Notes under the pieces: model-generated | The model's database searches: none | Told to the model about the DNA's origin: nothing | The model's input: only the letters and a program-made list of their open reading frames with translations | Position numbers and translations under genes: made by a program | Virus record (IMG/VR): IMGVR_UViG_3300039099_000002 | Direction: 5' to 3' (one strand) | From: an uncultured virus (IMG/VR IMGVR_UViG_3300039099_000002) | Lineage: Duplodnaviria > Heunggongvirae > Uroviricota > Caudoviricetes | DNA: 64,000 bases | Part shown: piece by piece, positions 15,309-45,708 of the stretch | Layout: each line of letters opens with the position of its first letter | Position numbering within the stretch: the first letter of the stretch is position 1

Positions 15309-15582
15309 AATATTAAAAATCCCCACATATTATGGGTACAAGAAAAATAAAGATTTGATTTGTTATCTTATAGTCAGACAGGTGGAAATCATGTAATTGC
15401 ACCTTCTGGAGTCTCCGAGTCGTACTCTTTTGTTTTTAGTCCGCCGACTTGGCTAAAAGATAATTTTGATTTATTCAAGGATCTTGTTTGTTGTTTGTGG
15501 TTTTTCATTACCCGCATTTTGTTGTTTGGCTTATGTATTATGCATTCGTAATATTTACTTTTTCTATTAATAATTGGTTGTT

Positions 15583-15960
15583 TTAATCCTCGTCTTCTTT
15601 TTCTGAACCCCAGGCAAAAACAATTTTTTTCTCGCTATCTGTTCGTGCGTCAGGCAGATTTTTTGTTACCTCTCCACAGATTGATGAAATCTGTCTATCT
15701 ATTGTATATTGATCTGCGGGATATCGTAAATCAATCCCCTTTTCTTTGGCGATTCTATTGGACTCTTGGCAGTTAGCTATATACTGTTTGGTGTCATCGT
15801 TGAGGTTTTCGTAGGTGTGGTCTTTTAGTGCCTTAGAAAACTGATAATTATATTGACTCTGCCCACCGTTTATTCTTGTCATATATAATTCCCACGCAGA
15901 AAGTCCGCATTGTGGCAATAATTTAGACAAAGTTTTATCAATCCAAAGTTCTTCGGTCAT
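15583..15960 (-). CDS. putative immunity/partner protein family 1 (paralog of 18457..18807)
   Basis: IDKTLSKL..QC..SAWE.YMT..NGG, FSKALKDHTYENLN.DTKQYIANCQESNRIAKEKGI shared. Confidence 0.7.
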   Translation of the reverse strand: MTEELWIDKTLSKLLPQCGLSAWELYMTRINGGQSQYNYQFSKALKDHTYENLNDDTKQYIANCQESNRIAKEKGIDLRYPADQYTIDRQISSICGEVTKNLPDARTDSEKKIVFAWGSEKEDED

Positions 15961-15961
15961 G

Positions 15962-18000
15962 TTATAAATTTCCTCGCGCTTCAGCATCTAATTTGTTGTT
16001 GTCCATTTGGTCGTTTTGAACAGTTAATTTGCTTCTGTTAAAAACAAGCCCATAATTGTTTGGTTCGTAACTTTTGTTTAGTCTCATTCCATCATAGCCC
16101 TGAATGATGGCAAGCCTACCAGATGTTTTAGCCTTATTGATATCACCTATGAAAACGTCTGCGACTTTCTTGTAAGTTTCTCTTGCTTCTGTTATCAGTT
16201 TTTGAGCTTGTGGCGAAACAACAGCGTTAGAGCCACCAGGACTAGATGTGTCTTTTAGGTAAGAGTTGAATATTCTGACCCCTTCTTTATAAGCATGATC
16301 AGCTTTTGCTTGCACTACAATGCCTTCATAGCTGTCAACAACTTTTGTTCCATCCCTTTTTATGTATTCGTATTTATCGTTTTCTACTTTTTCAATTGTA
16401 AATTTAGGTGGAGCTATGTCATAGGGCATTTTATCTATGCTAACGGAGATAGACTTTTGAGCTTTTGACTCCTTGAATGTCATCTCGATCTCAAATTGAT
16501 CATTCCCCAGCGAGGATGGTTGTATTTTTGTTTTTTAGGAGTTTCAGTCAAATTATTGTTGAGTTTTGTCGAAACAGCGGATCTCGCGCTAGAAAATTTA
16601 CTAGAGTTTGTTGATGCGCGAAGTTGCTGCTCAGAAAGAGAACTGAATAGCTGAATAGGGGCAGGATATTTTGCTTTCGCGTCGTTTTCTTTTTGTGCAA
16701 GCCATGTCTTAAGATCGGATTCAAGTTTCGCCACATCTTGACTGTTTTTTTCTTGATCTCCCCATTTGAAGTCTGCGCTCGTTGCCATTCTTGCGGTCGC
16801 ACTTTTTTTAGCTGGATATCCAGGGTTTGAATATCCGCGCTTAGTAAGAATTTTGTGTGCGTCTTCTGCTTTTTGTGCAGTTACAGGTGTGTCAAAAACA
16901 GTGAGGACGTATATGCCAGTCCCGTATAAATTGTTGTCTTTCTCGCCTGTTGACAAAAAGTTGTTCCCATTTTTAAAGAAGTCAAAGTAAATCTGCTCAC
17001 CCATCGCCCTGAATGACAAATTTCCACCATTTTTAGCTATGTTGTCAACATCGTCCACATTGCCAATTTTAGGTTTGGCATTAAACCCTAATTTTTCGGC
17101 TAAAGTGGACGCAGTGTTGTCATTTAGTGAAGAAAGTTTGGTATTCTTGGGATTGTTATTGTGTGTGTTAACAAAACTATCAGTCTCTTTCTCTAATTTT
17201 TCTGCAAATGTGCCAAGAGAGTCAATGTCTCCGTTTTTTATGGCATCTGCAATGTCTTGGTACGGGTTTTTTGTTGGAGTTGCTGCTGTGGGTGTTGATT
17301 TAGCTGCTGGTGCTGCTGTAGATGTTGCTGTGGGTGTTGATTTAGCTGCTGGTGCTGCTGTAGATGTTGCTGTGGGTGTTGATTTAGCTGCTGGTGCTGC
17401 TGTAGATGTTGCTGTGGGTGTTGATTTAGCTCTATTTGCTATGAAGGACAGCGTGTTGTGTAATTTAGTCCCGCTTGATATTTTATCTGCAAGCCATCCA
17501 GAATAAGTTTTGTGTACGGTATCTAGTTGGACGTTGCAGTTTTTCTTGCTTTGTGCCAAACACGCGTAACCATTTGGACCCCTACAAGACCAGCCTTTTG
17601 AGCAATTCATTTGTGTTTGAGCAAAGTTAAAAAATTCCAATGGTAAATAGTTAACTTTCTCGGATAAATAAAGTGCTATTTGCAAAGACGCAATATACAC
17701 TACGTCTTGTTCAGAATAGGTTAAAACCTCTCTGTTTTTGGGTGTTAGGACAATTTTATCTTTGCTAATATCAAAACCCATTATTAGCTTTTTGCCACCC
17801 ATGCGCGGCGTTTGAAAAATCCCGGATATTATGTATCCAGGGTTGGGATTTTTTAAAATATTAAAATTCTCTATTTTGCTCCCATAATTCTCGTCTACAA
17901 TTTCGTAGACCATCATTTGCATAAATCTTGATTTATCAGACTCACTACCTAAAGAGTCATATTCTTTGGTAATTGTGTCGTGTGTAATTGTGTTTTTCAT
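15962..18000 (-). CDS. polymorphic effector F: shared N-domain + linker + ART-like domain; split by a frameshift at ~16531-16536
   Basis: ORFs 16480..18000 and 15962..16483 join by one base at an A6 run to give PK(K)TKIQPSSLGNDQFEIE, matching [19 protein letters not shown] of the paralog; FRAM, NLYGTGIYV, GYDGM, LVFNR. Confidence 0.75.
17280..17432. repeat. 42-bp intragenic tandem repeat (AKSTPTATSTAAPA)
   Basis: About 3.5 copies. Confidence 0.9.
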
Positions 18001-18073: not shown

Positions 18074-18328
18074 TTATCCAATATTCATTGATAGCAGTTT
18101 TTCGTGCTGTTTATCAATAGTAATTGGTTCTTGTGACCACTTTAATAAACTACCTAAATCAACTGGCTCTAATGGCTCACTATTGTCGTAGCGTGTGGCG
18201 ACCAAATTATCTCTATCAACTGTGTCTTTTCCCAGATAATATAAGTCCATGCCGCCTCTAGTGCCGATTTTAAACGGGGTTTCTACCCATTGGGCGTTTG
18301 GGTAATCTTCTTTGCTTGCTATTTGCAT
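18074..18328 (-). CDS. hypothetical protein inside effector array
   Basis: ORF 84 aa. Confidence 0.6.
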   Translation of the reverse strand: MQIASKEDYPNAQWVETPFKIGTRGGMDLYYLGKDTVDRDNLVATRYDNSEPLEPVDLGSLLKWSQEPITIDKQHEKLLSMNIG

Positions 18329-18456
18329 TTTTTTTGTTTTTAGTTACTTTTATTTTACTACCTAACTTTGCGTTATTCAGTAGTTATCATAATATAGAGG
18401 ATAATAACTACTGAATAACACAAAAGCAAAACAGAATAGCCAACATTATCTGAAGT

Positions 18457-18807
18457 CTAATCAAAAACAACTTTCTTCTCGTCTTCTGTCCTTGCATCAG
18501 GTAGATTTTTTGTTACTTCACTACAAATTTCACGAATCTGCCTATCCATAGCATCTTTATCTACAGTCTTTCTCAAGTTAATGCCTTTTTCTTTGGCTAT
18601 TCTATTAGATTCCTGACAATTTGCTATATACTGTTTAGTGTCTTCGTTAAGATTTTCGTAAGTGTGATCTTTTAGTGCCTTAGAAAACTCATATTCGTAT
18701 TGGCTCTTTCCGCCATTTAGCCCTGTCATGTACATTTCCCACGCAGAACCGCTGCATTGTGAGAATAATTTGGACAAAGTTTTGTCAATTCCAAGTTCGG
18801 TGGTCAT
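18457..18807 (-). CDS. putative immunity/partner protein family 1
   Basis: Paralog of 15583..15960, directly downstream of effector E. Confidence 0.7.
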   Translation of the reverse strand: MTTELGIDKTLSKLFSQCSGSAWEMYMTGLNGGKSQYEYEFSKALKDHTYENLNEDTKQYIANCQESNRIAKEKGINLRKTVDKDAMDRQIREICSEVTKNLPDARTEDEKKVVFD

Positions 18808-18854: not shown

Positions 18855-21800
18855 TTATTTCAAAGTTCCTCTCGCTTCTTTGTCTAAATTGTTGTTATCC
18901 ATCTGATCATTTTGAACGGTCATTTTGCCTCTGTTAAAAACAAGCCCGAAATTGTTTGGCTGATAACTTTCGTCTAGTCTTAACCCATCATAACCTTGAA
19001 TGAGAGCCAGCCTACCAGATGTTTTATTGCTATAGGTAATATCACCTATGAAAACGTCTCTAATTCTGTCATGAGTTTCTCTTGCTTGATTGATTATTTT
19101 TTGAGCTTGTGGCGAGACAGGAGACATACCATTGGTTAACGTAGCTTTCAAATACTCGTTGTGCGCCCTAACTGCCTCTATATAAGAGTGATCATTTTTT
19201 GCCTCGGCTATAGTATCCTTGTAGCTTTGAACTACTTTTAAGCCATCTCTTCTGGTGTACTCATATTTTCCATTCCCAACTTTTTCAATCGTGAACTTAG
19301 GTGGGGTTAAATCATAAAACAGTCCATTGATTTTGGTGTTAAAAAATTGTTGAGCAGATTTACTTTGTTTTTTGTTGAATTCGATTTCGTACCTTTCATT
19401 TCCTGTTGGAGATGATGCTATTTTTGTTTTTGTAGGCGTGACAGTTAACTTAGAGTTAAATGTATTAGAGATATTGTTCCTTATAGTGCTGTGTAGTAAA
19501 GAGTGCGCTGGGTCTGCCTTCAACTGGCTCTCTGTGAGTGGACTAAAATTTGCCGCACCAGCCGCACCCGCAGGATATTGCGTTTTTGCATCGTTTTCCT
19601 TTTGTGTAAGCCATTTTTGAAGTTGCGACTCAAGTTCTACTACATCTTGCTTGTTCTTTTTATGGTCTCCCCACTTGAAGTCTGCGCTCGTTACCATTCT
19701 TGCGGTTGCGCTGTCAGTGGGTAAAGCACCGGGATTGGAGTATTTGTTTTTATAAAGCACTGCGTGTGCGGCTTGAGCCTTACTCCCAGTTGGAGACGGA
19801 TCAAAAAGGGAAGCGACATATATACCACTTCCATACATATTGTTTCCATCTGCGCCTGTAGCTAGAAAATTGTCGCCATTTTTAAATGTGTCAAATCTTT
19901 TTTGAGAACCCATCCCCCTGAATGTTAAAGTTCCGCCATTTTGGGCAATATTATCAATTTCAGCTACAGTACCAATTTGTGGCTTGGTGTTAAACCCACG
20001 CTTCTCAGCCAAAGTGTATGCAATTGTGTCGTTTTTGCTGGCAAGTTTGACATTATTTGGTTACTATTATGCGCCGTAACTAAGGCTTCAGTCTCTTTTT
20101 CTAGTTTTTCGGCGAACGTGCTAAGAGCATCTATGTCTCCACTTTTAATCGCGTCTGCAATGTTTTGGTATGGGTTTGCTGTTTGTGGCGCAGGTGTGGG
20201 AGGTGTTTGGGGTTTAGGTGGGTTAATTATTTTATCTAAATCCGCTTTTTTGCCGTTGATGAATATGTCAACACCATTTGCTTTTGCCCATGATGCGATC
20301 GCGGGAGTCGGTTGATCTAGGCTATTTTTTGGCGAAAAATGAATCTCGGCAATGTCTGACGGTTTTACACCACCGTGAACTTGGGCTTCAACATATTTTT
20401 TACCTGTACCAGCCCAAGTACCATCTGTAATTCTTGATAGGTCATCAATATTTTTAGCTTTTGCGGCGTTTTGTAAGATTTCCTTATCTTCACCATTCGA
20501 GGCATAATAGATTGAGTAGTGAGACGGCAGCTTATCGCGCTTATACCCATGTCTTGTCATGGGTATTAAGCTTGAAGCGTCAGGTGGTGGTGGATTACCG
20601 TTATTTGTGACATCGCTTGCATACCCTGACTTAAACGAGTCACTTGCAGTAAATGTCATTCTGTCTTTTACTGCGTCTTTTTTGAGTTTTATAGAAATTG
20701 AGCCATAAACCTTGGCTACATCAGAGTGAGATTTGCCATTTAAATCGTTGCTCCCCAAGTATGCAGAAATAGGTCTGTCTGTGTCTAAAGCATTTGTGGG
20801 AATACCATTAGCAAGTTTTTCAACACGGCTACGCGCTGTTAAATAATTTTTATCAAGCAGGTCTGGAATATTGTGAGTAGTTTTGCCAAGCTGGTAAGCA
20901 TTTTTAAATTCAGAACCTAAAATAAGCTCCAGGGTATCGCTTTTACTCACCCTAATGAATGGCTGAGTGTCATTTGAATCCAGGATTTTTTTGACGTTAT
21001 TTTCAGCGTCATCTACGGCCTTTTGTCCCGCATTTTGTATCAGTTCATTTCTTGCATCAACAAGCCCCTTTTTATTTGTCGGGTTTTTATTGGGATTTTT
21101 GTTGCCCAAAATTTTATTTTTTAATGCGTTAATCTTCACCCCAATTGTTGATTGTGCAGGTGCAGGTGTGGGTGCAGGTGTGGGTGCAGGTGTGGGTGCA
21201 GGTGTGGGTGCAGGTGTGGGTGCAGGTGTGGGTGCAGGTGTGGGTGCAGGTGTGGGTGCAGGTGTGGGTGCAGGTGTGGGTGCAGGTTTCGCGCCTATTC
21301 CGAGCGTTGCTGCATTTGCCATGTGCGAACTATGTAAATTTGCTCCAGTTGATATTTGATCTGCAAGCCACCCAGCGTAAGTTGCGTGAGCAGGATTAAG
21401 TGGGTTGTTACAGTTTTTCTTGCTTTGTGCCAGACAAGCAAAACCATTTGGACCCTTGCAAGACCACCCCTTGGTGCAATTCATCTGTTTCTGAGCAAAG
21501 TTAAAAAATTCCAATGGCAAATATTTGACTTGCTCCGATAATTCCAGAGCCATTTTCATTGCCACATAATATGTCTCACTCTCTTCGGAGTGACTTAAAA
21601 CATCTATATTTTGAGGGGCTAAAACAATTTTGTCTTTGTTAATATCAAAGCCCATTATCAGTTTTTTCCCTCCCATACGCGGAGTTTCAAAAAAGCCAGA
21701 TATTATGTGTCCAGGGTTAGGTTTTTCCAAAATATTAAAATTTTCTATTTTGCCACCATAGTTTTCGTCTACCATTTCGTAGACCATTTTTTGCATGAAT

Positions 21801-21874
21801 CTTAATTTTTCTGACTTGCTATTCAAAGAGTTGTATTTGCTGGTAATTGAGTCTTGTGTAATTACGTTTTTCAT
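18855..21874 (-). CDS. polymorphic effector E: shared N-domain + (PAPT)n + DUF3626-like + ART-like domain; split by a frameshift at ~20059
   Basis: [36 protein letters not shown] (DUF3626-like); adding one C gives [21 protein letters not shown] matching paralog [24 protein letters not shown]. Confidence 0.75.
21153..21287. repeat. 12-bp intragenic tandem repeat (PAPT)
   Basis: GTGCAGGTGTGG, about 11 copies. Confidence 0.95.
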
Positions 21875-22123
21875 TGCGCTTATAAATGTATTGTCTGCTA
21901 TTTAAGTAAAGTATATTTACAAAATTGTATCATACCCATTTGTTTTTGTCGCCGTTAATAACAGCAAATTGCAACATAAAATTTCCTTATTCTGTATTTA
22001 TGTCGGTATTATTAAATTTGTCTACGTAATTTGTATTACTAAAAAGTGATTTTAATGCTTGCTTTTTTGCTTAAAAATAGTATTATAAATGCAAGAAGAA
22101 AAGAAAAAATTAAACAAAATAAA

Positions 22124-22497
22124 ATGGGAAATTAAATTACTCTGATACCACAGATTTATTTGAAGCGGCGACTATGTACGCCTTGAGACTTGATGGATAT
22201 AAATACAGGAAAGAAGAAGGGTTTGATGACTATAAAAAATACAAAGAATTGATGGATGGCGAAGAAATAAAAGACGAAGAGTCGTTGCCAACACTATTTT
22301 TCCTTCAGCGGGATCTAGCCAAAGGTCAACGTGAAGCCAAACTTTTTAAAGGGTTCTGGACAATATTTCTGAAATCAATAAAACTAACAGCAGAAATACC
22401 AGAAAAATATCAAAACGAAAAATACATCAAACAACGGAATGAAATTAAAAAAGACTTGGGTGAAATAACAAAAGAGGCGGGAAAATTAGCCAAATAG
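22124..22497 (+). CDS. putative immunity/partner protein family 2 (1-bp frameshift just after ATG 22124; open from 22174)
   Basis: ALR.DGY.Y, PTLFFLQRDLAKGQ shared with 24540 and 25589; LNYSDTTDLFEA aligns to LDYSDFTDLFEA; convergent on effector C. Confidence 0.7.
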
Positions 22498-22540
22498 GGA
22501 GATAAAGTAGATATCCTAGATTAAAAAACAGTCAAATAAA

Positions 22541-24394
22541 TTACGCCTTTGAAGATATATGCTTGGATTTAATTCCTTCAAGCATTACCACAAACTCATT
22601 TTCCTTGTCGCCATAAAATGGTGTTTTTCCGCTTCCTGGGATAGCTTCGTGAAAATATGCGCCGAATACCCTATGAATTGGCACAACCTGCGAAGTTAGC
22701 TCTGTTGTACTAGCGACATATACTTCTTTGAATATGGACGTAGATTCCATTGAGCCACGTTTTATATATGAGTTGTCGTCTCCAACTTTTGAGTTATAGA
22801 TGTCTGTAACATTTTTGCCCTCTGTGCGAAGTAAAGTTATAGTGCCATCTTTGTTTTTGTTGGGAAAATCAGTTTTTGACAGCATCTCATAAGTAAATGC
22901 GTGATACGCCGTCAAAGTGTTATTATATATCTCTTTTGTATGTCCCTTTTTCTGATTTTCCGAAACAGCTTTATATTGGTTCTCTGAAATAGCACGACTA
23001 AATTTGCCCTTCCAATACAAATCTTCGGGAGGAACATTTCTTTGTTTTGACATAAAATACTTCGCTGCTCTTGGGTATCTTCCCCAAGACGTATTTCCTT
23101 GTCCAGCCATCCAGCTTTCTAAGATACCATAATCGCCACCACCACTATCATTGTTCACATACTTCTGAAAATCGTACATTGTTGAGTCCGAGCCGCGCAA
23201 ATTATCAAATTCTTTGTCATTTTCATCAACAACTTTTGTAAAATCTGCGGAGTCAAAGTCTTTTGATTTTTGTTTAAATTCTTTCGGGAATTTTTCTGTA
23301 ATTCCTGCTGCTCTTATTCCTACAGTGTGTCTTGTAAAGTTGCCGATATAATCATCATTCCATTTGTCGTCATCTAGAGTCTTGCTGATGTCTGCGACTC
23401 GCTTCATTTCATCAAGTCTACTACCTATTATTTCTTGATCTTCTTTGCTGAAAATGCCATTAAGGTTGTCTTTCTTGCTAACCAAATCATTTATTTGGGT
23501 TACTACCTCTTTGTGTGTTAATTTACCAAAATATTCTGCACCATCTGGGTTCACTTTTGTATCTTTCATGCTCCATAAATCCAGCGGGTATTTGTTCCAA
23601 AATTTAGAATCTTTTTTAGCACCCTGCGCTCGATAACCAAGAGAACCGCCATTGTCTATCCGGTAAACCTTGCCATCGTTGCCAAGCATAATGTTGTCTT
23701 TTTCTAGTCCAACAACATCCCAATTACCCAAAAGTGCATCCGCAGCAAAATGTTTTTTAATCTCGCTCTTGATTAAGTCTTTTTCTTGTTGTGTCCCGTT
23801 TTTATTTATCTCGGCTAAATCCCTGCCTTCTACATATTCAGCAAGCTTCGTTGGCTTACCGCTGGCATCTTTGTAAACTTTGTGATTAGGGACGTTGATG
23901 CCTAGAGCTTGGTATGCACTATCTGCGATCGCCTCATTTTCCAAATGCTCTGGACTGCTGCCATTTTTCATCACATACTGCTTGCCAGTCACAGGATCTT
24001 TGACGAGTTGTGCGCCTGTCGTGCCACCAAGTTTTTTGACAACGACAAGATTATCTAAATTGTCTGGGAACTTGCTATTGTTTTTAAATTCTGGCTTGTC
24101 CGCTGGCTTAACTATGGCTTTATTTTTATTCTTTTGATCTTTTAGCCAGTCAATATAAGTGACATGATTTTGACTCAAGCTACTGAAGCAATTTTTTTTA
24201 GCACGAGACAAGCAAGCATATCCGTTTTCGCCTTTACAAGACCACCCAATAGTGCAGTTCATCCGCTTTTCAGCAAACTTAAAAAATTCTATCGGATAAT
24301 AATTTGTTTTTTCCGAAAAAGAACTAACTAGTCCTAAGCTCAAAAAGCACAAAGATTCATTTTCGCTTTGATTTAAAACATCTAGATTTTTCAT
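22541..24394 (-). CDS. polymorphic effector C: truncated shared N-domain + PI3/4K/HipA-like kinase + R-S-E ART-like domain
   Basis: LGGTTGA, YVMK, LENE, LLGNWDVVG, DNIM, RIDNGGSL; TLLRTE, MESTSI, ENEFVV. Confidence 0.75.
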   Translation of the reverse strand: MKNLDVLNQSENESLCFLSLGLVSSFSEKTNYYPIEFFKFAEKRMNCTIGWSCKGENGYACLSRAKKNCFSSLSQNHVTYIDWLKDQKNKNKAIVKPADKPEFKNNSKFPDNLDNLVVVKKLGGTTGAQLVKDPVTGKQYVMKNGSSPEHLENEAIADSAYQALGINVPNHKVYKDASGKPTKLAEYVEGRDLAEINKNGTQQEKDLIKSEIKKHFAADALLGNWDVVGLEKDNIMLGNDGKVYRIDNGGSLGYRAQGAKKDSKFWNKYPLDLWSMKDTKVNPDGAEYFGKLTHKEVVTQINDLVSKKDNLNGIFSKEDQEIIGSRLDEMKRVADISKTLDDDKWNDDYIGNFTRHTVGIRAAGITEKFPKEFKQKSKDFDSADFTKVVDENDKEFDNLRGSDSTMYDFQKYVNNDSGGGDYGILESWMAGQGNTSWGRYPRAAKYFMSKQRNVPPEDLYWKGKFSRAISENQYKAVSENQKKGHTKEIYNNTLTAYHAFTYEMLSKTDFPNKNKDGTITLLRTEGKNVTDIYNSKVGDDNSYIKRGSMESTSIFKEVYVASTTELTSQVVPIHRVFGAYFHEAIPGSGKTPFYGDKENEFVVMLEGIKSKHISSKA

Positions 24395-24539
24395 ATTCTT
24401 GTTTAAATAAATGACTGTATACAGTAAGTTAAGCAGAGATAATATAGTTATTGTATCATGTTTTTAAATTGCTATTTATTTATGTTTGTTTTTTGTCTAC
24501 AAAACAGTACAATAAAAAGACAAATAAAAAAGAAATAAA

Positions 24540-24923
24540 ATGCAAAACCTAGATTATTCTGATTTTACAGATTTATTTGAAGCCGTTACCATATTTGCTC
24601 TAAGATTTGACGGCTATACGTACAGAGAAGACAACAAAGACTTTAGTGATTACAAAAATTACCAACAATTGATGGACGGAAAAGAAATAAAAGACGAAGA
24701 CTTGTTGCCAACACTATTTTTTATTCAGCGGGATCTTGCTAAGGGTCAACACGAACCAGACAGCAAACTTTTTGGGATTTTTTGGGCATTATTTTTGAAA
24801 TCAACAAAACTGCCAATAGAAATATCAGAAAAATATCAAAATGAAGAACACGTTAAGCAGTGGAATGAAATTAAAAAAGATTTGGGGGAAATAACAAAAG
24901 AGGCAGGAAAATTAACCAAATAA
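24540..24923 (+). CDS. putative immunity/partner protein family 2
   Basis: Paralog of 22174 and 25589; convergent on relic D. Confidence 0.75.
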   Translation: MQNLDYSDFTDLFEAVTIFALRFDGYTYREDNKDFSDYKNYQQLMDGKEIKDEDLLPTLFFIQRDLAKGQHEPDSKLFGIFWALFLKSTKLPIEISEKYQNEEHVKQWNEIKKDLGEITKEAGKLTK

Positions 24924-25272
24924 CGAATTGCGATTTAATCAGTATTGCTTTTTTGGCTCTTGAGGATATGTGCTTAGATTTAATACCTTCAAGCATTACT
25001 AAAAACTCATTTTCATTATCATCAAAAAATGGAGTTCTGTCGCTTCCTGGGTCGGTGCTATTAAAATATGTCCCAAACACTCTATCCCTGCCTTCTATAT
25101 ATTCAGCAAGCTTCGTGGGCTTACCGCTGGCATCTTTGTAGACTTTGTGATTAGGGACGTTGATGCCTAGAGCTTGGTATGCACTTTTTTGCATGAATCT
25201 TAATTTTTCTGACTTGCTATTCAAAGAGTTGTATTTGCTGGTAATTGAGTCTTGTGTAATTACGTTTTTCAT
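24871..25272 (-). pseudogene. internally deleted effector relic D
   Basis: In-frame mosaic: first 29 aa identical to effector E, then kinase fragment SAYQ...EGRD, then ART tip RVFGTYF...ENEFLVMLEGIKSKH. Confidence 0.85.
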
Positions 25273-25527
25273 TGCGCTTATAAATGTATTGTCTGCTATT
25301 TAAGTAATGAATATTTATGAAATTCTATCACGCTTGCTGTTTTTTGTCTCTGTGCCTATATACAATGAGTTACATAAAGTTAGTATAATTATTGTATCAC
25401 GCCTTTAATTGAATTTTTTACACAACTTTAATACCGTTTCCAAAATAGACCCTTGTTCTCGCTTGAGAATTGTCAATAAATTTGATTTTTTGTTATTAAA
25501 TATTTTAAATTTTTTACCACTAAATGC

Positions 25528-25556
25528 TTGCGTTTTTGTCTAAAAAATAGTATAAT
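25528..25556 (+). promoter_or_regulatory. sigma70-type promoter of family 2 partner gene
   Basis: TTGCGT-17-TATAAT; related copies at 22059-22086 and 24486-24513. Confidence 0.65.
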
Positions 25557-25588
25557 AAAAACACAAACAAAAAACAAAAAACAAAAAA

Positions 25589-26023
25589 ATGATAAGTTTA
25601 GAAGATTTTGGTAGTGAGTTTTGGTATAGCAGTAGGAACTTCAACAGACTATTCAAGGATGTAAGTGAATTTGCATTAAGCTTTGATGGATGGAAGTATT
25701 CAGCAGAAAATAAGGATTTTACGCCTCGATTAATGAGGAAGAATATAGAAGCATTAGAAGAGGGCAGAGAGATCCCTGAAACCCAATTTGTGCCACAACT
25801 GTTTTTCCTTCAGAGAGGTCTTGCTAAGGGACAATATGAAATAAATGCCAAAAATTACAAGATTTTTTATGAGCTTTTCTTAAAGTGTTTAGAAATAAGC
25901 GACGATATAGAAGAAGGGTACAGACAAGAGGAGTATTATGAAAAATGGAAGAAAAAAAAGAACAATTTGCAAGAAATAATTAAAAACGTAAAAAACATAC
26001 TGGAGTCAGTAAACTGGAAATAA
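25589..26023 (+). CDS. putative immunity/partner protein family 2
   Basis: FALSFDGWKY, PQLFFLQRGLAKGQ; convergent on effector B. Confidence 0.75.
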   Translation: MISLEDFGSEFWYSSRNFNRLFKDVSEFALSFDGWKYSAENKDFTPRLMRKNIEALEEGREIPETQFVPQLFFLQRGLAKGQYEINAKNYKIFYELFLKCLEISDDIEEGYRQEEYYEKWKKKKNNLQEIIKNVKNILESVNWK

Positions 26024-26121
26024 CAATATTTAACTAAAAAATACACAAATTTATCGTGTATTTTTTAGTTAGAAGACCGCGACTCTAATGTATTGTCTTT
26101 CCCGTTATCCTGCTTTTCTGA

Positions 26122-26203: not shown

Positions 26204-28900
26204 TCAATAATCGCTAGATTTATGATAAACACTAACACCTTCTAGCATCGCTACAAACTCGTTTTCACTGTTACCAGCAAACATACCTTTGTTATCTGTT
26301 TCAGTCCTTGAATTAAAGTATGTTCCAAATATTCTGTGTATTGGCACTTTTTGAACTGTTACTTCTGTTGCTGTTCCGACATAAGTTTCCCTCACCAAAG
26401 ATGTAGACTCCATTGCGCCACGATCAATTTTGCCAGTGTCACCAGGTTTAAGATTGTACAAGTCTGTTACATCTTTATCCTCTGTGCGGATAAGTGTTAT
26501 AGTGCCGTCTTGGTTTTTGTTTGGAATATCCGCTTTTGATAGCATTTCATAGGTAAAGGCGTGCATTGCGGTCAACGTTTCATCAACAGTCTTTTTATTC
26601 CATCCGAACCCCTTTGGTGGACTTTGGGGCAAAATTTCGTAATTTCCTCCTGCGGAACTTTCGCCATTTCGCCAGTAATAAGAATCCTTTGAAATATTTC
26701 TTTGATTTGCGAAGAAATATTTTACTGCTTGAGGGATATCATTCCAGGAGTCACTCGCTTGCTGAGTTGCCCACTCAGTAATAATAGTAAAATCTCCTTT
26801 GTTTTTGCCCATGTATTCTTTGAGATCGGATACTATTGAATTTTTGCCGCGCAAATTATCAAAGTCGTTCCCCTTTTCATCAACCATTGTTGTAAAATAA
26901 TCATCAATGGAATTTGTAGACTTTTGTTTAAACTTATTTGGCAACTTGTCTGTAATCCCTGCTGCTCTTGTACCAACAGTATGCTTTGTGAAGTTACCGA
27001 TGTAGTCATCATTCCACTTGTCTTCATCCAGCGTTTTACTGATGTCTGCGACTCGCTTCATTTCCTCAATTCTGCCGTCTATTATCTCTTGGTCTTCTTT
27101 GCTAAAAATACCCTTTAGCTTATCTTTCTTTGACACCAAATCGTTTATTTGGTTTACCACTTCTTTGTGAGTTAAGTCGCCAAAATATTCTGCACCGTCT
27201 GGATTTATGGATTTATCTCTCATACTCCACAAATCTAGTGGATATTTATTCCAGAATTTAGGATCTTTTTTAGCACCCTGCGCTCGATAACCAAGTGAAC
27301 CGCCATTGTCTATACGGTAAACCTTGCCATCGTTGCCAAGCATAATGTTGTCTTTTTCTAGTCCAACAACATCCCAATTACCCAAAAGTGCATCCGCAGC
27401 AAAATGTTTTTTAATCTCGCTCTTAATTAAGTCTTTTTCTTGTTGTGTACCGTTTTTCATTATTTCGGCTAAATCCCTGCCTTCTACATATTCTGCTAGT
27501 TTTACATCCTTACCGTTAGGATTTTTATAAAGTTTGTGGCTGGGGACGTTTATGCCTAAAGCTTGATATGCACTATCGCCGATCGCTTCATTTTCCAAAT
27601 GCTTTGCGCTGCTGCCATTTTTCATCACATACTGTTTACCAGTTGCGGGGTCTTTAACTAGCTTTGCGCCTGTTGTACCACCAAGTTTTTTGACAACAAC
27701 AAGACTGTCTAAATTATCTGGGAATTTACCATCGTTTTGGGGTGATTTAGGTGCGGGGTTGTCGTCCGGTTTAACCGTAGATGTTGGATTAATATCAGGT
27801 TTATTCGTAGGCGTTGGCTTAATATTAGGTTTATTCGTAGGTGTTGGCTTAATATTAGGTTTGTTCGTAGGTGTTGGCTTAATATTAGGTTTGTTCGTAG
27901 GTGTTGGCTTAATGATCCCAAGAGCCTTGGCTTCGTCCATGTGACCCTTGTGAAGTTTAGCCCCTTTCCTTATTTGGTCTTTTAGCCAGCTAATATATGT
28001 TTTATGGTTAGGATTCAGATTGTTGTTACAGTTCTTCTTTGTTTTAGACAAACAGGCATAACCATTTTCACCCTTACAAGACCAGCCAACGGTGCAATTC
28101 ATCTGCTTTTGTGCAAAGTCGAAAAACTCAATCGGATAGTAGTTGGCTTTTTCTGAGAAAGAGTTAACTAAACCCAGACTCAAAAGATATAAAGACCCGC
28201 TTTCGCTATTGTTTAATACCTCTAAATTCTGCGGTGCTAAGACGATTTTACTATCATCTATATCAAAACCCATTATTAGTTTTTTACCGCCCATACGTGG
28301 CGTTTCAAAGCCTCCAGATATGATATAGCCAGCTTTTGGCTTCTCTAAAATCTTAAAATTTTGTATCTTGCCTCCATAGTTCTCATCAACTATTTCATAA
28401 ACCATAGATGCCATAAAATCGGGCTTTTCGGTATCACTTAATGAGTTGTATTTATCGTTAATTCTAGTTTTTAAATCTTGCTCCGAAAAAACATAATTTC
28501 TCTTGTTTTTTTCAATATGATCTGTATCTACTGCTTTGATTCCGCCAAACCTATCCTCTGGCATTTCACTTAAATAGGCTTCTTTGGCTTCTAATTCGGT
28601 GAAAAAACCAATCATGTATTTATGCTCGTCAAAATTTCCGTCACCGTCAAGCTGCTCAATTTCAAAAACCAGACCAACATTTGATGGGTCTGCTATATAG
28701 CTGGGCGAAACATAACAATCAAGAGTTTCTTTGTCCGCCCCAACATATCCCCTGATATGCCCATAACAAATTTTTAGCTCCCTTTCGTGAGGTGTACCCA
28801 CAAATCTTTTATCACCTGGGAAATACTCGATGCCAAGTTTTTTGTTAAAAAAAGGTATTATTTTCTTAGCTGACGCATAATCAAGCGTGCTATTTTTCAT
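26204..28900 (-). CDS. polymorphic effector B: InPase-like + shared N-domain + linker + kinase + R-S-E ART-like
   Basis: YGHIRGYVGADKETLDCYV, FDEHKYMIGF...AKEAYL (InPase); kinase and ART motifs as in C; GGAGGA RBS before ATG 28900. Confidence 0.8.
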   Translation of the reverse strand: MKNSTLDYASAKKIIPFFNKKLGIEYFPGDKRFVGTPHERELKICYGHIRGYVGADKETLDCYVSPSYIADPSNVGLVFEIEQLDGDGNFDEHKYMIGFFTELEAKEAYLSEMPEDRFGGIKAVDTDHIEKNKRNYVFSEQDLKTRINDKYNSLSDTEKPDFMASMVYEIVDENYGGKIQNFKILEKPKAGYIISGGFETPRMGGKKLIMGFDIDDSKIVLAPQNLEVLNNSESGSLYLLSLGLVNSFSEKANYYPIEFFDFAQKQMNCTVGWSCKGENGYACLSKTKKNCNNNLNPNHKTYISWLKDQIRKGAKLHKGHMDEAKALGIIKPTPTNKPNIKPTPTNKPNIKPTPTNKPNIKPTPTNKPDINPTSTVKPDDNPAPKSPQNDGKFPDNLDSLVVVKKLGGTTGAKLVKDPATGKQYVMKNGSSAKHLENEAIGDSAYQALGINVPSHKLYKNPNGKDVKLAEYVEGRDLAEIMKNGTQQEKDLIKSEIKKHFAADALLGNWDVVGLEKDNIMLGNDGKVYRIDNGGSLGYRAQGAKKDPKFWNKYPLDLWSMRDKSINPDGAEYFGDLTHKEVVNQINDLVSKKDKLKGIFSKEDQEIIDGRIEEMKRVADISKTLDEDKWNDDYIGNFTKHTVGTRAAGITDKLPNKFKQKSTNSIDDYFTTMVDEKGNDFDNLRGKNSIVSDLKEYMGKNKGDFTIITEWATQQASDSWNDIPQAVKYFFANQRNISKDSYYWRNGESSAGGNYEILPQSPPKGFGWNKKTVDETLTAMHAFTYEMLSKADIPNKNQDGTITLIRTEDKDVTDLYNLKPGDTGKIDRGAMESTSLVRETYVGTATEVTVQKVPIHRIFGTYFNSRTETDNKGMFAGNSENEFVAMLEGVSVYHKSSDY
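27790..27912. repeat. 30-bp intragenic tandem repeat (KPTPTNKPNI)
   Basis: About 4 copies. Confidence 0.9.
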
Positions 28901-29150
28901 TATTTCTGTCCTCCATTTTTTTGGATATTTTGTTGTAAACTGCAAGCAATTTTAGCCACTTCAAAAATGACATTTCTTGCCAGTATTTTAAATTTGCAAA
29001 ATTATCGCCATTAAGATGAAAAGTTATCTCTAGCCAATTGTCATAATTAATAAATAATGGCGTTTGGTTCAAAACTTTGCGCCATTCATTTTTATTAAAT
29101 CTAATGCGATCGCGTGAACTCAAAAAATAAGCAACACATTCGGACTCAAA
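28890..29150 (-). CDS. tail assembly chaperone frameshift extension (gpT-like)
   Basis: Frame open from TTT at 29150 overlapping the stop of 29146..29826; no ATG start. Confidence 0.55.
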   Translation of the reverse strand, partial: FESECVAYFLSSRDRIRFNKNEWRKVLNQTPLFINYDNWLEITFHLNGDNFANLKYWQEMSFLKWLKLLAVYNKISKKMEDRNNEK

Positions 29151-30076: not shown

Positions 30077-30239
30077 ACCTGAGTTCGACCTAAATTAAAA
30101 AGCTCAAAGTGAGTAATAGTAAGACTTTTCTCAATAATTAGTAATTATTGAGAATAAAATTTCTTTGGCTAAAAGTCTCTAACTCTCTAACTCTCTTCCC
30201 ACTTGCTTTCTAGCGGATTTTCTTACGTCGAACTCAGGT
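30077..30239. mobile_element. ~163-bp MITE with terminal inverted repeats
   Basis: CACCTGAGTTCGAC (30076-30089) / GTCGAACTCAGGTG (30227-30240); removal restores the effector A frame. Confidence 0.7.
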
Positions 30240-31847
30240 GGTTGCAGGTTTAGTTACAGGGTCAACCTCTTTTAAGTGTATTTCATACCCGCTATCAGAT
30301 TTTTTAAAGCTAGTCACATTAAAATTGGTGCCTGGTCTGAATAAAACCTCTTTTTCTTGCCTACTATCTGAAATATTTGATATATCTTTCCCTGTTTTAG
30401 ATTCAATTACATACTGCAATTCTCCTCTAAACTTGCGATCGCCGGAACTAGATGTACTTGTGAAACTTTTTTCTGTAATTATACTACCGGGTTTGTACGT
30501 ATTTTCTATATCTGAGTTACTCATATTTTTTGGCATTTTAGTCCCTCGAAGAACTGTGCCAATAAAATCAGGCAATTTATTGAGTGCGGATGTCGTCATC
30601 CTGATGTCGGCAATCGTGTCATTTTCTAGCTGATGCTTAGATCTATATTCTCCAGCAGATTTCATAATGTCTATTTTATAAATAGCCTCAGAATCTTCGT
30701 TATTTCGCAAATACGTGTTCATGTGATCAAAGCTTGTTTGCGTGTAAACTTTTAAAGAGGCTAATTCAGCTTTTGTCATGTTGGGGTATTGTTTCTGTAA
30801 GTCATCAGAAACACTACTTAGCGCAACCACTCTCCTGCTGTTTGGCTGAGACAGAAGCCTACCTTCATACTCCTTTGATTCCATGTCTGATACTTTATAC
30901 AATCTGTAATCAGACGGCAATGAGATGTTTTTATCAGACTTTTCGTAGGCATCAAGTCTATCTTGTTTGTCCGATATTTCTTTTATTTTCCTGGTTGCAT
31001 ATTTGCTGTTTGGATTATTTTTTAACTTTTCTTTATTTTCTGATAATTCAGAATTTAATTCTTTTCTTGCTTTGTCTATATTATCCTTAAACAATTTTTT
31101 ATCTTCGTCATTTTCTGGTTGTAACAACTTCTCACCTCTACCTGTTTTCCTAAGTAAATTTACTGTTGCTTTAGATTTAGTTGCAGGTTTAGTTGCGGGG
31201 TTAGTTGCGGGGTTAGTTGCAGGTTTAGTTGCAGGTTTAGTTGTGGGTTTAATTGCAGGTTTAGTTGCGGGTTTAGTTGCGGGTTTAGTTGCGGGTTTAG
31301 TTACGGCTTTTTCTAAGTCTTTAAATAAATCAGATTCGGCACTAGCATTTTTTGCTAACCACTGCATATATTGTGAGTGAGTTGGATTCAACTCATTGTT
31401 ACAATTTTTCTTTGATTTAGACAGACAAGCATAACCATTTTGCCCCTTACAAGACCACCCGACTGTGCAATTCATTTGCTTTTGAGCAAAACTGAAGAAT
31501 TCTATTGGAAGATAATTAGTTTTGTTTATGTTGCCAAAAGATAGTGATCTTACAGCAAGATATATTTTCTCTATATCGTCGTCAATTATTTCTAGGTTTT
31601 GTGGCGTTAATACTATGTTGCTCCCATTGATTAAAAAATCTATTTTTAATCGCCTGTTCCCTACTCTTGGAGAGTGAAAATATCCAGAAATATTTGGCAA
31701 TTCTATATGGGTTATATTTAAATTCTCAATTACGCCCCCATAATTTTCATCTACTATATCAAAAACCAAAGCAGACACAAATGGTGTCAAACCATCTGTG
31801 TCTAAGTTTTTAAATTTTTCTTCAAGATGCTTACTTGAAAATATCAC
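30234..31847 (-). CDS. polymorphic effector A: shared N-domain + (KPAT)n + VIP2/C3-like ADP-ribosyltransferase
   Basis: YT...MNTYLR, SALNKLP, VLRG, SFTSTS, QEKEVLF (R-STS-ExE); true start uncertain. Confidence 0.85.
   Translation of the reverse strand: MIFSSKHLEEKFKNLDTDGLTPFVSALVFDIVDENYGGVIENLNITHIELPNISGYFHSPRVGNRRLKIDFLINGSNIVLTPQNLEIIDDDIEKIYLAVRSLSFGNINKTNYLPIEFFSFAQKQMNCTVGWSCKGQNGYACLSKSKKNCNNELNPTHSQYMQWLAKNASAESDLFKDLEKAVTKPATKPATKPATKPAIKPTTKPATKPATNPATNPATKPATKSKATVNLLRKTGRGEKLLQPENDEDKKLFKDNIDKARKELNSELSENKEKLKNNPNSKYATRKIKEISDKQDRLDAYEKSDKNISLPSDYRLYKVSDMESKEYEGRLLSQPNSRRVVALSSVSDDLQKQYPNMTKAELASLKVYTQTSFDHMNTYLRNNEDSEAIYKIDIMKSAGEYRSKHQLENDTIADIRMTTSALNKLPDFIGTVLRGTKMPKNMSNSDIENTYKPGSIITEKSFTSTSSSGDRKFRGELQYVIESKTGKDISNISDSRQEKEVLFRPGTNFNVTSFKKSDSGYEIHLKEVDPVTKPATT
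31177..31305. repeat. 12-bp intragenic tandem repeat (KPAT)
   Basis: About 10 copies of TTAGTTGC(A/G)GG(T/G). Confidence 0.9.
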
Positions 31848-31930: not shown

Positions 31931-32347
31931 TTATAAATCTCCAACAGCAAACTCAAGTTCAAGCATTGCCACTCCGCTACCACTACCACGCTTAACATCT
32001 GGGCGCTTAATTTTAGAAAGAATGCAGCCTTTGTAAACAACTGGTGGACCATAATTTTCTACGTCTGGGCAGTTTTTTACCGCTTGAACAACAATCGAAA
32101 ATGGATCTTGACAGCTGCTTTCAATTTCCTCAATCAAAATTTCATGATCAGCGGCATCGTATGGTAAACGCAAAACCAAGTCACTAATCATTCGCCTTCC
32201 GGTGGTGAAATAGCTTTTGTCCTTTAGTGCGTCTGGATATTTTGCTGTTTCCCTCGACACCTCCCCCCCGCTCTTTTCTGTGACTGCTAACTGGAGGAAT
32301 GGTCCCCCTATTTGAACAATAAAATCTGACTCATTTTGAATTGACAT
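31931..32347 (-). CDS. tail tube protein
   Basis: 138 aa directly after sheath; SGGE, YKGCIL, MLELEF pattern. Confidence 0.8.
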   Translation of the reverse strand: MSIQNESDFIVQIGGPFLQLAVTEKSGGEVSRETAKYPDALKDKSYFTTGRRMISDLVLRLPYDAADHEILIEEIESSCQDPFSIVVQAVKNCPDVENYGPPVVYKGCILSKIKRPDVKRGSGSGVAMLELEFAVGDL

Positions 32348-45605: not shown

Positions 45606-45708
45606 AATTTTTACCTATTTTTCCCTCAATATAAAAATTGTATCAAATTTATTTACATACCGAACAAATAGCACAAAAACATATTTAAGGCTACACGGAA
45701 GTAGTTGT

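Follow-up and report, generated by a model that had tools for sequence, protein, structure and literature searches.

Small convergent genes encode candidate inhibitors of the ART domain of kinase-ART phage effectors

Introduction

Effectors that phages inject into their hosts are thought to be widespread and are known mostly from sequence. Apart from the toxin-immunity pairs of prophages, the means by which a phage keeps its own effector in check have hardly been explored. Virion-linked proteins that combine InPase, ART and kinase-type domains have been described, with injection into the host as a prediction (Iyer et al. 2017, PMC5512222; Iyer et al. 2022, PMC9503650). Among the MuF toxins of prophages, 14% are ARTs, and the small ORFs behind such toxins have been put forward as immunity genes (Jamet et al. 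2017, PMC5576092); the ART Bxa of a Bacteroides stercoris prophage is described as being blocked through binding of Bsi (PMC11699363).

A stretch of 64,000 nucleotides from an uncultured virus of the Caudoviricetes (IMG/VR record IMGVR_UViG_3300039099_000002; hereafter the window) raises the question of what three small genes are doing opposite two kinase-ART effector genes, B and C, and the relic of a third, D. An earlier note on this DNA had read them as cognate immunity genes with promoters of their own, protecting the lysogen. Here we find that the small genes probably encode inhibitors of the ART domain, in a phage that bears no sign of lysogeny.

Results

The three small genes (Table 1) are paralogues, each lying tail-to-tail with a gene on the opposite strand: copy 1 faces C across a gap of 43 nt, copy 2 overlaps the 3' end of relic D by 53 nt and copy 3 is separated from B by 180 nt. 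Copies 1 and 2 share 70% identity, while copy 3 reaches 39-43% against them (BLASTP E 2e-26), and the convergent arrangement of three paralogues described earlier is thus borne out by the ORF map and these identities. The motifs then given as ALxFDGYxY and PxLFFLQRxLAKGQ were approximately right; the first reads ALR(L/F)DGY.Y, or ALSFDGWKY in copy 3, and the second P(T/Q)LFF(L/I)QR.LAKGQ. The AF2 model of copy 2 is all-alpha (pLDDT 93, pTM 0.88). The window's copies have no match in Pfam, PHROG, NCBIfam or PADLOC, and a structural search with the fold gave none either (best Z 4.7); the partner proteins form a small family that is new and predicted to be all-alpha.

Table 1. Effector genes, small partner genes and associated signals in the window
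Feature	Position	Strand	Description
Promoter-like block of copy 1	22059-22086	+	TTGCTT-16-TATTAT
Partner copy 1	22174-22497	+	ORF, 107 aa; frame open from 22123; sole in-frame start ATG 22174
Effector C	22541-24394	-	617 aa; truncated N-terminal domain, kinase-like domain (~23198-24082), predicted R-S-E ART (~22544-23197)
Promoter-like block of copy 2	24486-24513	+	TTGTTT-16-TACAAT
Partner copy 2	24540-24923	+	Intact ORF, 127 aa; sequence used for the family model
Relic D	24871-25272	-	133 aa; collapsed C-type kinase-ART gene
Promoter-like block of copy 3	25528-25556	+	TTGCGT-17-TATAAT
Partner copy 3	25589-26023	+	Intact ORF, 144 aa; partner chain of the co-fold
18-bp hairpin	26031-26071	.	Candidate bidirectional terminator between copy 3 and B
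Effector B	26204-28945	-	913 aa; InPase, shared N-terminal domain, PT-rich linker, kinase-like domain (~26879-27793), predicted ART (~26207-26878)

Copy 1 had been given a start at 22124, an ATG that proves to be out of frame with the ORF. Compared with copy 2, it carries a 1-nt deletion right behind the start codon, because of which it lacks the ancestral start codon and most of helix 1: the reading frame of 22174 extends back no further than a TAA at 22120-22122, and the product from ATG 22174 is without its first 17 residues. This damaged state is 100% identical in five other assemblies, and two further copy 1 loci on one contig carry one additional indel. In a relative, a further indel splits the gene. 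Copy 2, on the other hand, is whole and is identical in seven of eight related loci, with a single mismatch in the eighth (L029).

We examined the effectors domain by domain. The InPase domain of B is matched by Pfam (E 5e-22), while neither B nor C matches a curated ART family in Pfam or NCBIfam, and a PDB profile search found nothing. The R, S-x-S and E-x-E motifs are nevertheless invariant, in all 13 rows of one alignment and all 50 of another (R805, S832, S834, E879 and E881 in P0063 numbering). In a wide structural search with the ART-domain model (pLDDT 84), the best 15 rows were all R-S-E ARTs, spanning residues 5-218, at modest Z scores (8za7_B, Z 5.4 with 149 residues aligned and an rmsd of 4.3; C2-I, 5.1; SpvB, 5.0); PDB 6drh was also among the matches, and Foldseek returned weak PARP10 and SpvB rows only. 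On motifs and modelled fold, we assign the C-terminal domain of B and C as an R-S-E ART. A different effector, at 30234-31847, matches ADPrib_exo_Tox, unlike B and C.

The kinase assignment of the middle domain of B and C is weak. A Gly-rich loop, a Lys and D..N and DxG-like motifs are conserved. Among 13 members, the only matches are to APH (one member, E 1.6e-4) and HipA_C (two members, E 0.16 or weaker), beside a PI3K chain at E 1.7.

The tail and head morphogenesis block includes both effector genes, which lie between those for the tube and the tape measure. Among the 120 listed of 295 kinase-ART homologues, the large majority carry Phage_Mu_F (PF04233), some with NUDIX in addition, and one carries Portal_Mu; in the window's effectors Pfam finds no Phage_Mu_F (none in C, only InPase in B). 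Given the fusion of their homologues to head proteins of the MuF or portal type, B and C are, by analogy, probably virion-associated and delivered into the host with the DNA.

Relic D retains 29 residues of an E-type N-terminus together with 34 of the kinase and 43 of the ART C-terminus, and covers only positions 55-91 of the kinase HMM and 185-226 of the ART HMM; a longer relic survives in the variant L027/L028. The two remnants are 97% and 72% identical to C, compared with 76% and 49% to B, which identifies D by sequence as a former C-type paralogue. Since D was of the C type and the copy beside intact C is damaged, copy 2 is likelier to serve as the functional partner of C than to be an orphan. 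The earlier description of copy 2 as an intact gene facing a collapsed effector stands, while its likening to an orphan immunity gene calls for refinement.

Comparison of the C and B cassettes placed a divergence boundary exactly between kinase and ART. Sliding DNA identity is 77-98% across the kinase, 43-72% across the ART and 46-55% across the partner gene, with protein identities of 84%, 49% and 43%, respectively, and the partner thus varies together with the ART. As in polymorphic toxins, a small gene adjoins the toxin-coding 3' end, and the variable C-terminus co-varies with it while the upstream part is conserved. At the sequence level, the ART-coding 3' end and the convergent partner gene appear as one contiguous, co-diverging cassette, like polymorphic toxin-immunity modules.

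The predicted structure of the pair places the partner on the ART active site. In one structure-prediction job on a single pair, copy 3 with B residues 385-898, ipSAE reached 0.84, 0.84 and 0.81, against 0.00 for the best of three controls; partner pLDDT was at least 84 and the runs shared at least 80% of contacts. The tool's mark is met by 116 of 157 solved complexes and by 2 of 215 mismatched pairs, a calibration that is rough here, as our own alignments were used. Modelled contacts join ART residues S718/W719, R827/G828, S832 (of STS) and E879 (of ExE) to partner residues 73-85, 15-30 and 35-36. The partner's best-conserved loop (LQR.LAKGQ.E) and helix 1 lie over the ART cleft and cover the ARTT and PN loops, with an invariant Arg (R76 in copy 3) at the catalytic Glu of ExE and a conserved Lys (K80) at the Ser of STS. 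The core of this interface is conserved on both sides, with L30 and R76 present in 100%, L78 in 85% and K80 in 73% of 41 partner rows, and S718, R827, S832 and E879 in 100% of 50 ART rows. The rim is variable: B and C agree at 14 of 33 positions, and copies 3 and 2 at 14 of 34. The binding that had been proposed from the sequence is accordingly predicted for copy 3 with the kinase-ART part of B, with contacts on ART catalytic residues.

The arrangement is also found in other viruses. L043 and L044 (IMG/VR: provirus; cyanobacterial) carry a kinase-ART gene of 48% identity together with a partner homologue, convergent and with overlapping ends, and the effector-partner pair, judged by sequence, recurs independently. 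Of 76 other viral loci, 25 have a small gene from an unrelated family directly at the 3' end of the ART-bearing frame, convergently in 8 and co-directionally in 17. An ART match is present at only 52 of the 76, and neither small family was detected beside the gene in 25 of these 52; either an adjacent partner is not obligatory, or further families exist.

We next considered expression. As noted earlier, each copy is preceded by related sigma70-like hexamers, and these sit in a block of ~39 columns, 27 of them invariant across all three copies, which is more conserved than the coding DNA between the cassettes; a fuzzy search of the window finds the block at these three places only. Good -10 hexamers and a spacing of 16-17 nt are combined with -35 hexamers that agree with TTGACA in just three of six positions, for which reason a consensus scanner does not list them. 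That scanner finds 19 promoter-like sites in this AT-rich region against 17.1 expected. With weak -35 hexamers and a site count near expectation, the case for these candidate promoters is based on block conservation rather than consensus strength. The hairpin behind copy 3 folds at -18.5 kcal/mol (z -6.1), with 0 of 200 shuffles folding equally well; the terminator search found none for copies 1 and 2. An RNA library yielded one unstranded contig of 186 nt, inside copy 3.

Protection of a lysogen finds no support in the gene content. There is no integrase or repressor in the window. Related records of 62, 138 (83% complete) and 20.7 kb yielded neither tyrosine nor serine recombinases, and the 83%-complete relative yielded no integrase or resolvase. 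The phage encodes its own DnaE-type polymerase and clamp loader. Of the proposal of cognate immunity proteins, what holds is that the small proteins are predicted cognate binding partners of the ART domain, as the co-fold, the co-divergence, the pair in L043/L044 and the slot at the ART end suggest in silico and by comparison; the protection of a lysogen is not supported.

Distant homologues of the partner, free or fused, occur in bacterial defence loci (HmaB, DrmMI, DruE and GmrSD). They are fused to or directly next to defence or restriction-modification genes in 11 of 28 loci with neighbours scanned (L005, L006, L008, L012, L014, L016, L032 and L037-L040), for which PADLOC names HmaB, DrmMI, DruE and PDC-S37/Hhe. 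Fusion partners of the bacterial module are NUDIX, HmaB and DrmMI-type methylases, while DruE and GmrSD occur as its neighbours. Across 33 bacterial or metagenomic loci, no kinase or ART of the effector family lies within 6 kb of the homologue. The ancestral role of the partner family may be something else; the linkage of homologues to kinase-ART genes that the inhibitor reading implies is seen in L043/L044 and not at these loci.

Discussion

Taken together, these findings make it fairly probable that the small genes encode inhibitors that bind the ART domain of the adjacent effector and block its active site. The partner would do so by laying its conserved loop and helix 1 over the cleft. B probably works with copy 3 and C with copy 2, as would result from duplication of a cassette followed by reciprocal decay of effector D and partner copy 1. 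Separate promoters on the opposite strand would uncouple the partner from effector expression. It may then keep newly made effector inactive in the producing cell and, once phage genes are expressed, could switch off injected effector, including that of superinfecting kin. Counted against this reading are the damage to the partner beside intact C, the weak -35 hexamers, the missing terminators of copies 1 and 2, the weak kinase assignment, the 25 of 52 ART loci with neither small family and the distant homologues without a nearby ART.

Links to bacterial defence suggest another role, in which the partner is a domain captured from a defence system (Hma, a DISARM-type methylase, a Druantia-type helicase or GmrSD) and the free copies serve as decoys or inhibitors, their position beside effectors being that of an accessory-gene hot spot only. 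The defence neighbourhoods, the absence of ARTs near the homologues and the placement on the opposite strand behind an own promoter, as in a moron-like accessory gene, fit this anti-defence role, which we nonetheless hold to be unlikely, as it leaves unexplained the high-scoring interface on ART catalytic residues, the co-variation of partner and ART from the kinase/ART boundary onwards and the same convergent pair in L043/L044.

Predicted binding would also be expected of assembly chaperones or adaptors that keep the effector soluble and silent and load it into the virion, perhaps being co-packaged. Effector-specific chaperones are known for contractile injection systems, and B and C are encoded among tail and head morphogenesis genes. 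This role seems quite improbable to us: the predicted interface is the catalytic cleft and not the shared N-terminal domain, the would-be trafficking part, the partner genes lie outside the late transcription units behind their own promoter-like blocks, and copy 2 is kept beside a collapsed effector. A last reading sees no functional link: the copies would be accessory genes, with functions lost or unrelated, that multiplied as passengers when the effector region was duplicated in tandem. In its favour, duplication accounts for the three co-occurrences in the window, which are thus not independent, copy 1 is in decay, and natural variants without copy 3 also lack the kinase-ART part of B. It is nonetheless very unlikely, for the pair recurs independently in L043/L044, the co-fold supports binding, copies 2 and 3 are intact ORFs and the promoter block is better conserved than coding DNA.

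The inhibitor reading places the locus beside several known systems. Like MuF toxins, as described in PMC5576092, the effectors have a conserved N-terminus, a variable C-terminal effector domain and a small gene directly at the 3' end, and are of the virion-associated kind; homologues of their kinase-ART module are mostly MuF fusions among the 120 of 295 listed. Unlike them, B and C have no MuF domain and share a different N-terminal domain, encoded between the genes for tail tube and tape measure; the partner gene runs convergently behind a promoter-like block of its own instead of being a co-directional downstream ORF, its family lacks database matches (Pfam, PHROGs, NCBIfam, PADLOC), and the phage shows no sign of being temperate. 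Bxa and Bsi, as presented in PMC11699363, are similarly a phage-encoded ART with an N-terminal trafficking-type domain and a small binder that stops ADP-ribosylation, the latter being a prediction in the window. That system additionally has an enzymatic ADP-ribosylhydrolase among its immunity proteins (Bsi, BAH), of which there is none in the window, and the window effector also has a kinase-like domain; the likeness is one of description, with no sequence relationship seen.

Tre1-Tri1 and other ART toxin-immunity pairs share the R-S-E ART (6drh and 8za7 matched our ART model), and the Tri1 immunity protein occludes the ART cleft. Those, in contrast, are T6SS or secreted bacterial toxins, and our partner fold has no structural match. 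Polyvalent or head-packaged phage effectors such as T4 Alt resemble B and C in domain combination and in MuF or portal fusions, and differ in that the accounts in PMC5512222 and PMC9503650, as far as drawn on here, describe no dedicated inhibitor genes for them.

The partner fold might, further, be a dedicated ART-docking module that serves phage and host alike in their conflict. The phage copies would be pseudo-substrate inhibitors, presenting their invariant Arg to the catalytic Glu of the phage's own injected ART; the bacterial copies would be either the point of attack of phage ARTs on defence systems or a host guard against injected ARTs, which it would neutralize. We regard this as doubtful. 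If true, the host-guard option would amount to an 'anti-effector' layer of immunity housed in defence islands, and hosts whose copies also bind phage ARTs could disarm injected effectors, a mechanism not described in the literature examined.

The locus gives a concrete inhibitor-effector pair with a predicted residue-level interface, adds another family of candidate inhibitors, with a wider spread among related phages, and ties the fold of the putative inhibitor to bacterial defence systems.

Partner genes lie tail-to-tail with kinase-ART effector genes

Three paralogous partner genes lie tail-to-tail with kinase-ADP-ribosyltransferase (kinase-ART) effector genes: copy 1 with effector gene C, copy 2 with the collapsed relic D and copy 3 with effector gene B, confirming the arrangement described in the earlier note. 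Copies 1 and 2 are 70% identical, and copy 3 is 39-43% identical to either. For copy 1, two starts had been proposed; the ORF from 22174 (+) stands, whereas a single-nucleotide deletion directly behind the ancestral ATG at 22124 has put that codon out of frame. As the ORF can start only at 22174, its first 17 residues are missing. This state is 100% identical in five other assemblies, and at two further loci on one contig an additional indel splits copy 1. The three partner genes are 99.8-100% identical among related assemblies.

Upstream of each partner gene lies a promoter-like block that is found three times in the window and nowhere else there. Across the three copies, 27 of its ~39 columns are invariant, exceeding the conservation of the coding DNA of the cassettes (46-55% identity). 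By consensus the blocks are weak, with -35 hexamers matching at 3/6 positions, and hence they were not listed by the scanner; the AT-rich region contains 19 promoter-like sites, with 17.1 expected. The proposal that each partner has its own promoter thus gains from the conservation of the block and not from its consensus strength. A strong hairpin follows copy 3 (z -6.1), and none was found downstream of copies 1 and 2 (z +0.98 and +1.25). Among sparse, unstranded RNA-library contigs from two metatranscriptome runs, in which DNA carry-over is possible, one run yielded a 186-nt contig within copy 3 (25643-25828) together with pieces of B and C, and neither run covered copies 1 or 2.

An extended -10-like sequence, TGATACAAT, occurs four times (1.0 expected; four reached in 2/100 shuffles): one site lies upstream of effector gene E and one upstream of C, a third is in the spacer beyond relic D and the fourth precedes a tail-fibre-like gene. 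Judged from these sites, each effector gene may be transcribed from a promoter of its own and not depend solely on late-operon read-through.

Coordinates of features in the window and, where a locus is named, in related loci
Feature	Coordinates	Strand	Remark
Portal, protease, scaffold, Mu-type major capsid, adaptor		-	
GmrSD_N-like short ORF	3618-4112	-	
Bro-N protein	7122-7532	-	
DNA methyltransferase	7688-8599	+	
Tape-measure gene	12204-15326		
Small ORF	15583-15987	-	
ORF	15962-16483	-	
Effector gene	16480-18000	-	
Small ORF	18457-18807	-	
ORF	18855-20012	-	
ORF	19964-21874	-	
Copy 1	22174-22497	+	TTGCTT-16-TATTAT
C	22541-24394	-	kinase-ART
Copy 2	24540-24923	+	TTGTTT-16-TACAAT
Relic D	24871-25272	-	collapsed
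Copy 3	25589-26023	+	TTGCGT-17-TATAAT
Hairpin	26031-26071		
B	26204-28945	-	kinase-ART
Further effector	30234-31847	-	shared N-terminal domain; canonical ADPrib_exo_Tox / XopAI-like ART
Tube	31931-32347	-	
Sheath	32362-33840	-	
TGATACAAT	21924-21932, 24450-24458, 25391-25399, 45637-45645	-	extended -10-like
L030 protein	L030:5673-6719	+	partner domain + DUF2281
Portal fusion	L043:3628-5697		InPase-like stretch
Portal fusion	L045:2950-5130		ART-like C-terminus
Kinase-ART gene, L043/L044	5716-7779	+	48% identical
Partner homologue, L043/L044	7769-8185	-	
Second small family	L048:3440-3829	-	
Second small family	L047:7577-7987	-	
Second small family	L101:7567-7887	+	

Kinase-ART proteins are probably virion-borne effectors

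The window is a portion of a large myovirus that also encodes a DnaE-type polymerase, a clamp loader and a thymidylate kinase, and contigs of up to 168,672 bp bear the same proteins. Relatives of its major capsid protein are Mu/B3-like only (≤35% identity), and a search of the phage collection with the partner protein and with a 7.5-kb stretch of the region gave no match. The interval from the tube gene to the tape-measure gene is occupied by a row of genes on the - strand, which encode proteins with a common N-terminal domain and a Pro/Thr-rich linker followed by differing enzymatic C-termini. In B and C these comprise a kinase-like domain and then an ART domain, and B has an InPase domain at its N-terminus (Pfam E 5e-22). 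The further effector gene at 30234-31847 lacks a small convergent neighbour at its 3' end.

The C-terminal domain of B and C is an ART. Its Arg, S-x-S and E-x-E motifs are all invariant, and each of the best 15 structural matches to its model (pLDDT 84) is an R-S-E ART, although Z is modest; among them are 8za7_B (5.4; rmsd 4.3, 149 aligned), C2-I (5.1), SpvB (5.0), Certhrax (4.9), C3 (4.6), VIP2 (4.5) and Tre1 (4.0). The kinase label for the middle domain is weaker: conserved motifs are present, and family matches comprise only APH in 1/13 members, HipA_C in 2/13 and a PI3K chain at E 1.7. PDB profile searches with the ART and kinase domains returned nothing credible.

At least 295 proteins are homologous to the kinase-ART module of C. 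Of the 120 listed, by far the most contain Phage_Mu_F, in some cases alongside NUDIX, and one contains Portal_Mu; their names include 'SPP1 gp7 family head morphogenesis protein', 'minor capsid protein [Cyanobacteria bacterium]' and a Nostoc linckia hypothetical protein. Because homologues are fused to Phage_Mu_F or Portal_Mu, the kinase-ART proteins are probably virion-borne, injected effectors, by analogy with the role proposed for MuF fusions and polyvalent proteins (PMC5512222, PMC9503650 and PMC5576092).

Elsewhere in the gene row, there is a 49-nt overlap between ORFs 19964-21874 and 18855-20012, which align to consecutive stretches (residues 245-283 and 300-492) of what is one gene at 16480-18000; a frameshift seems to have divided a single effector gene into the two ORFs. 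Translations indicate that related small ORFs follow both effector genes, 16480-18000 and 18855-20012, in the same direction (within 15583-16483 and 18074-18807), ORF 15583-15987 resembling 18457-18807 and ORF 15962-16483 resembling the C-terminal half of 18855-20012. This suggests that another effector cassette, which includes a small companion gene, has been duplicated.

Copy 3 is predicted to bind the ART of B

Co-folding of copy 3 with B residues 385-898 gave ipSAE values of 0.84, 0.84 and 0.81, compared with 0.00 for the best of three controls; the partner had pLDDT ≥84, and at least 80% of contacts agreed between runs. In calibration, the mark was reached by 116/157 solved complexes and 2/215 mismatched pairs, rates that are only approximate here given the custom alignments. 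On the B side, the entire predicted interface falls within the ART, at S718/W719, R827/G828, S832 (STS), 839-845 and 875-879, including E879 (ExE). On the copy 3 side, it involves the loop at 73-85, helix 1 (15-30), W35 and K36, with low-error pairs that include R76-E879 and K80-S832. The interface core is conserved throughout the family: of 41 partner rows, all have L30 and R76 and 73% have K80, and all of 50 ART rows have S718, R827, S832 and E879. The rim varies by cassette: B and C are identical at 14/33 interface positions, and copies 3 and 2 at 14/34.

Between the C and B cassettes, sliding identity is 77-98% in kinase-coding DNA, 43-72% in ART-coding DNA and 46-55% in the partner gene. 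Their tail-to-tail order joins the 3' end of the ART and the partner gene into one contiguous variable module. Relic D retains a kinase remnant (34 residues; 97% identical to C, 76% to B) and an ART remnant (43 residues; 72% and 49%, respectively); both are closer to C, making D a C-type paralog. The damaged copy 1 adjoins intact C, and intact copy 2, which the earlier note likened to an orphan immunity gene, adjoins collapsed D; copies 1 and 2 agree at 23/34 interface positions. The simplest reading would be a cassette duplication followed by reciprocal decay of effector D and copy 1, and we infer that copy 2 is the working partner of C, and copy 3 that of B.

In a natural structural variant of the phage, seen at loci L027 (6332-8124) and L028, copy 3 is missing together with the kinase-ART part of B and the 5' end of relic D, and the InPase and N-terminal part of B is joined to a longer relic. 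The same 24998-to-28022 joint is present in one contig of DNA run X15.

Convergent kinase-ART and partner genes recur in a provirus

We surveyed 78 viral loci encoding kinase-ART relatives. The partner profile matched only the phage's own relatives (L041 and L042) and L043/L044, a provirus by IMG/VR class, in which a kinase-ART gene and a partner homologue are convergent with overlapping ends, flanked by a portal-InPase gene and a MuF gene. Translations of two cyanobacterial-type proviruses, L043 and L045, show a Mu-type portal gene fused to an effector domain, in both cases directly upstream of the kinase-ART gene.

At 25/76 other viral loci (among L045-L106), the ART-bearing frame is immediately adjoined at its 3' end by a member of a second small family that is unrelated to the partners (8 convergent, 17 co-directional). 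Its members (~90-140 aa, typically starting MEI/MKI..N.RY) have no Pfam match and are more widespread than the partner family of the window, and they are a candidate alternative inhibitor. An ART match was found in 52/76 of these loci, of which 27 contain either small family and 25 neither.

Distant partner homologues occur in bacterial defence loci

The partners have no match in Pfam, PHROGs, NCBIfam or PADLOC. Close relatives form 13 clusters, and a profile search of 1.84 billion representatives recovered 49 proteins at E ≤0.001, 3 at ≤1e-10 and 2 at ≤1e-30. The wider family shares ALRFDGY.Y, FF.LQR.L.KWGGE, LFL and one Trp. AF2 confidently predicts six helices (pLDDT 93, pTM 0.88). Foldseek found no match to this model at E ≤0.001 in PDB or BFVD, and the best hits of a wide structural search were unrelated helical proteins (Z 4.7 at most), which is not proof of a new fold.

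Distant homologues (23-31% identical) were found in Chloroflexota, Acidobacteriota, Planctomycetota, Verrucomicrobiota, a Calothrix plasmid and metagenome contigs. Neighbours were scanned at 28 loci (21/22 genome loci and 7/11 distant metagenome loci, the others being too short or skipped). In 11/28, restriction or defence genes are either fused to the partner domain or its immediate neighbours: GmrSD (L005), DrmMI-type methylase (L006, L037; fused in L016), DruE-type helicase plus SNF2 with a NUDIX fusion (L008), HmaB (L012, L038; fused in L032), HsdM (L014) and PDC-S37/Hhe helicase-nuclease (L039, L040). Other homologues lie near ADP-ribosylglycohydrolase (L011), Fic (L020) and AbiEi (L024). 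No kinase or ART of the effector family was found within 6 kb at any of the 33 distant-homologue loci. A DUF3458_C assignment for the distant homologue P0016 came only from ESM Atlas rows at a score of 0.87 with low recognition and was discarded. On a contig of 36% GC with housekeeping neighbours (sucrose-phosphate phosphatase, RuvA and an aminotransferase), L030 encodes a 348-aa protein that shares 36% identity with the phage copy over its partner domain and that may be a host-side relative.

The defence-gene context is the main support for a rival explanation, that the partners are anti-defence factors. The immunity-type reading is better supported, by the co-fold scores (0.84 versus 0.00), the co-divergence of partner and ART and the convergent L043/L044 pair. 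From the same defence-locus context, it could also be proposed that the partner fold is an ART-docking module used by phage and host sides alike, which we consider unlikely.

The partners may act as cognate immunity proteins

The earlier suggestion that the partners protect a lysogen finds no support, which is not proof against it: the window contains no integrase or repressor, and three incomplete related records gave no recombinase match (Phage_integrase and Resolvase in G001 and G002, of 62 kb and 138 kb, the latter 83% complete; Phage_integrase only in G003, of 20.7 kb). The phage is apparently non-temperate.

Among the papers returned by literature searches for such a partner of kinase-ART phage effectors, none describes it in the listed title or opening of the abstract. 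The closest systems are phage MuF toxins, for which adjacent small ORFs are proposed as immunity genes (PMC5576092), and Bxa, an ART of a prophage that is blocked when Bsi binds it (PMC11699363). In contrast to both, the effectors of the window differ in N-terminal domain and tail-module position, the phage is apparently non-temperate, and the partner is convergent, with its own promoter-like block, a fold that appears new (a predicted model with no structural match) and defence-island relatives. As modelled, the locus may nevertheless work in a similar way. Our computational analyses thus favour an immunity-type role as the best-supported interpretation, and we consider it reasonably probable that the partners are cognate immunity proteins against the kinase-ART effectors.
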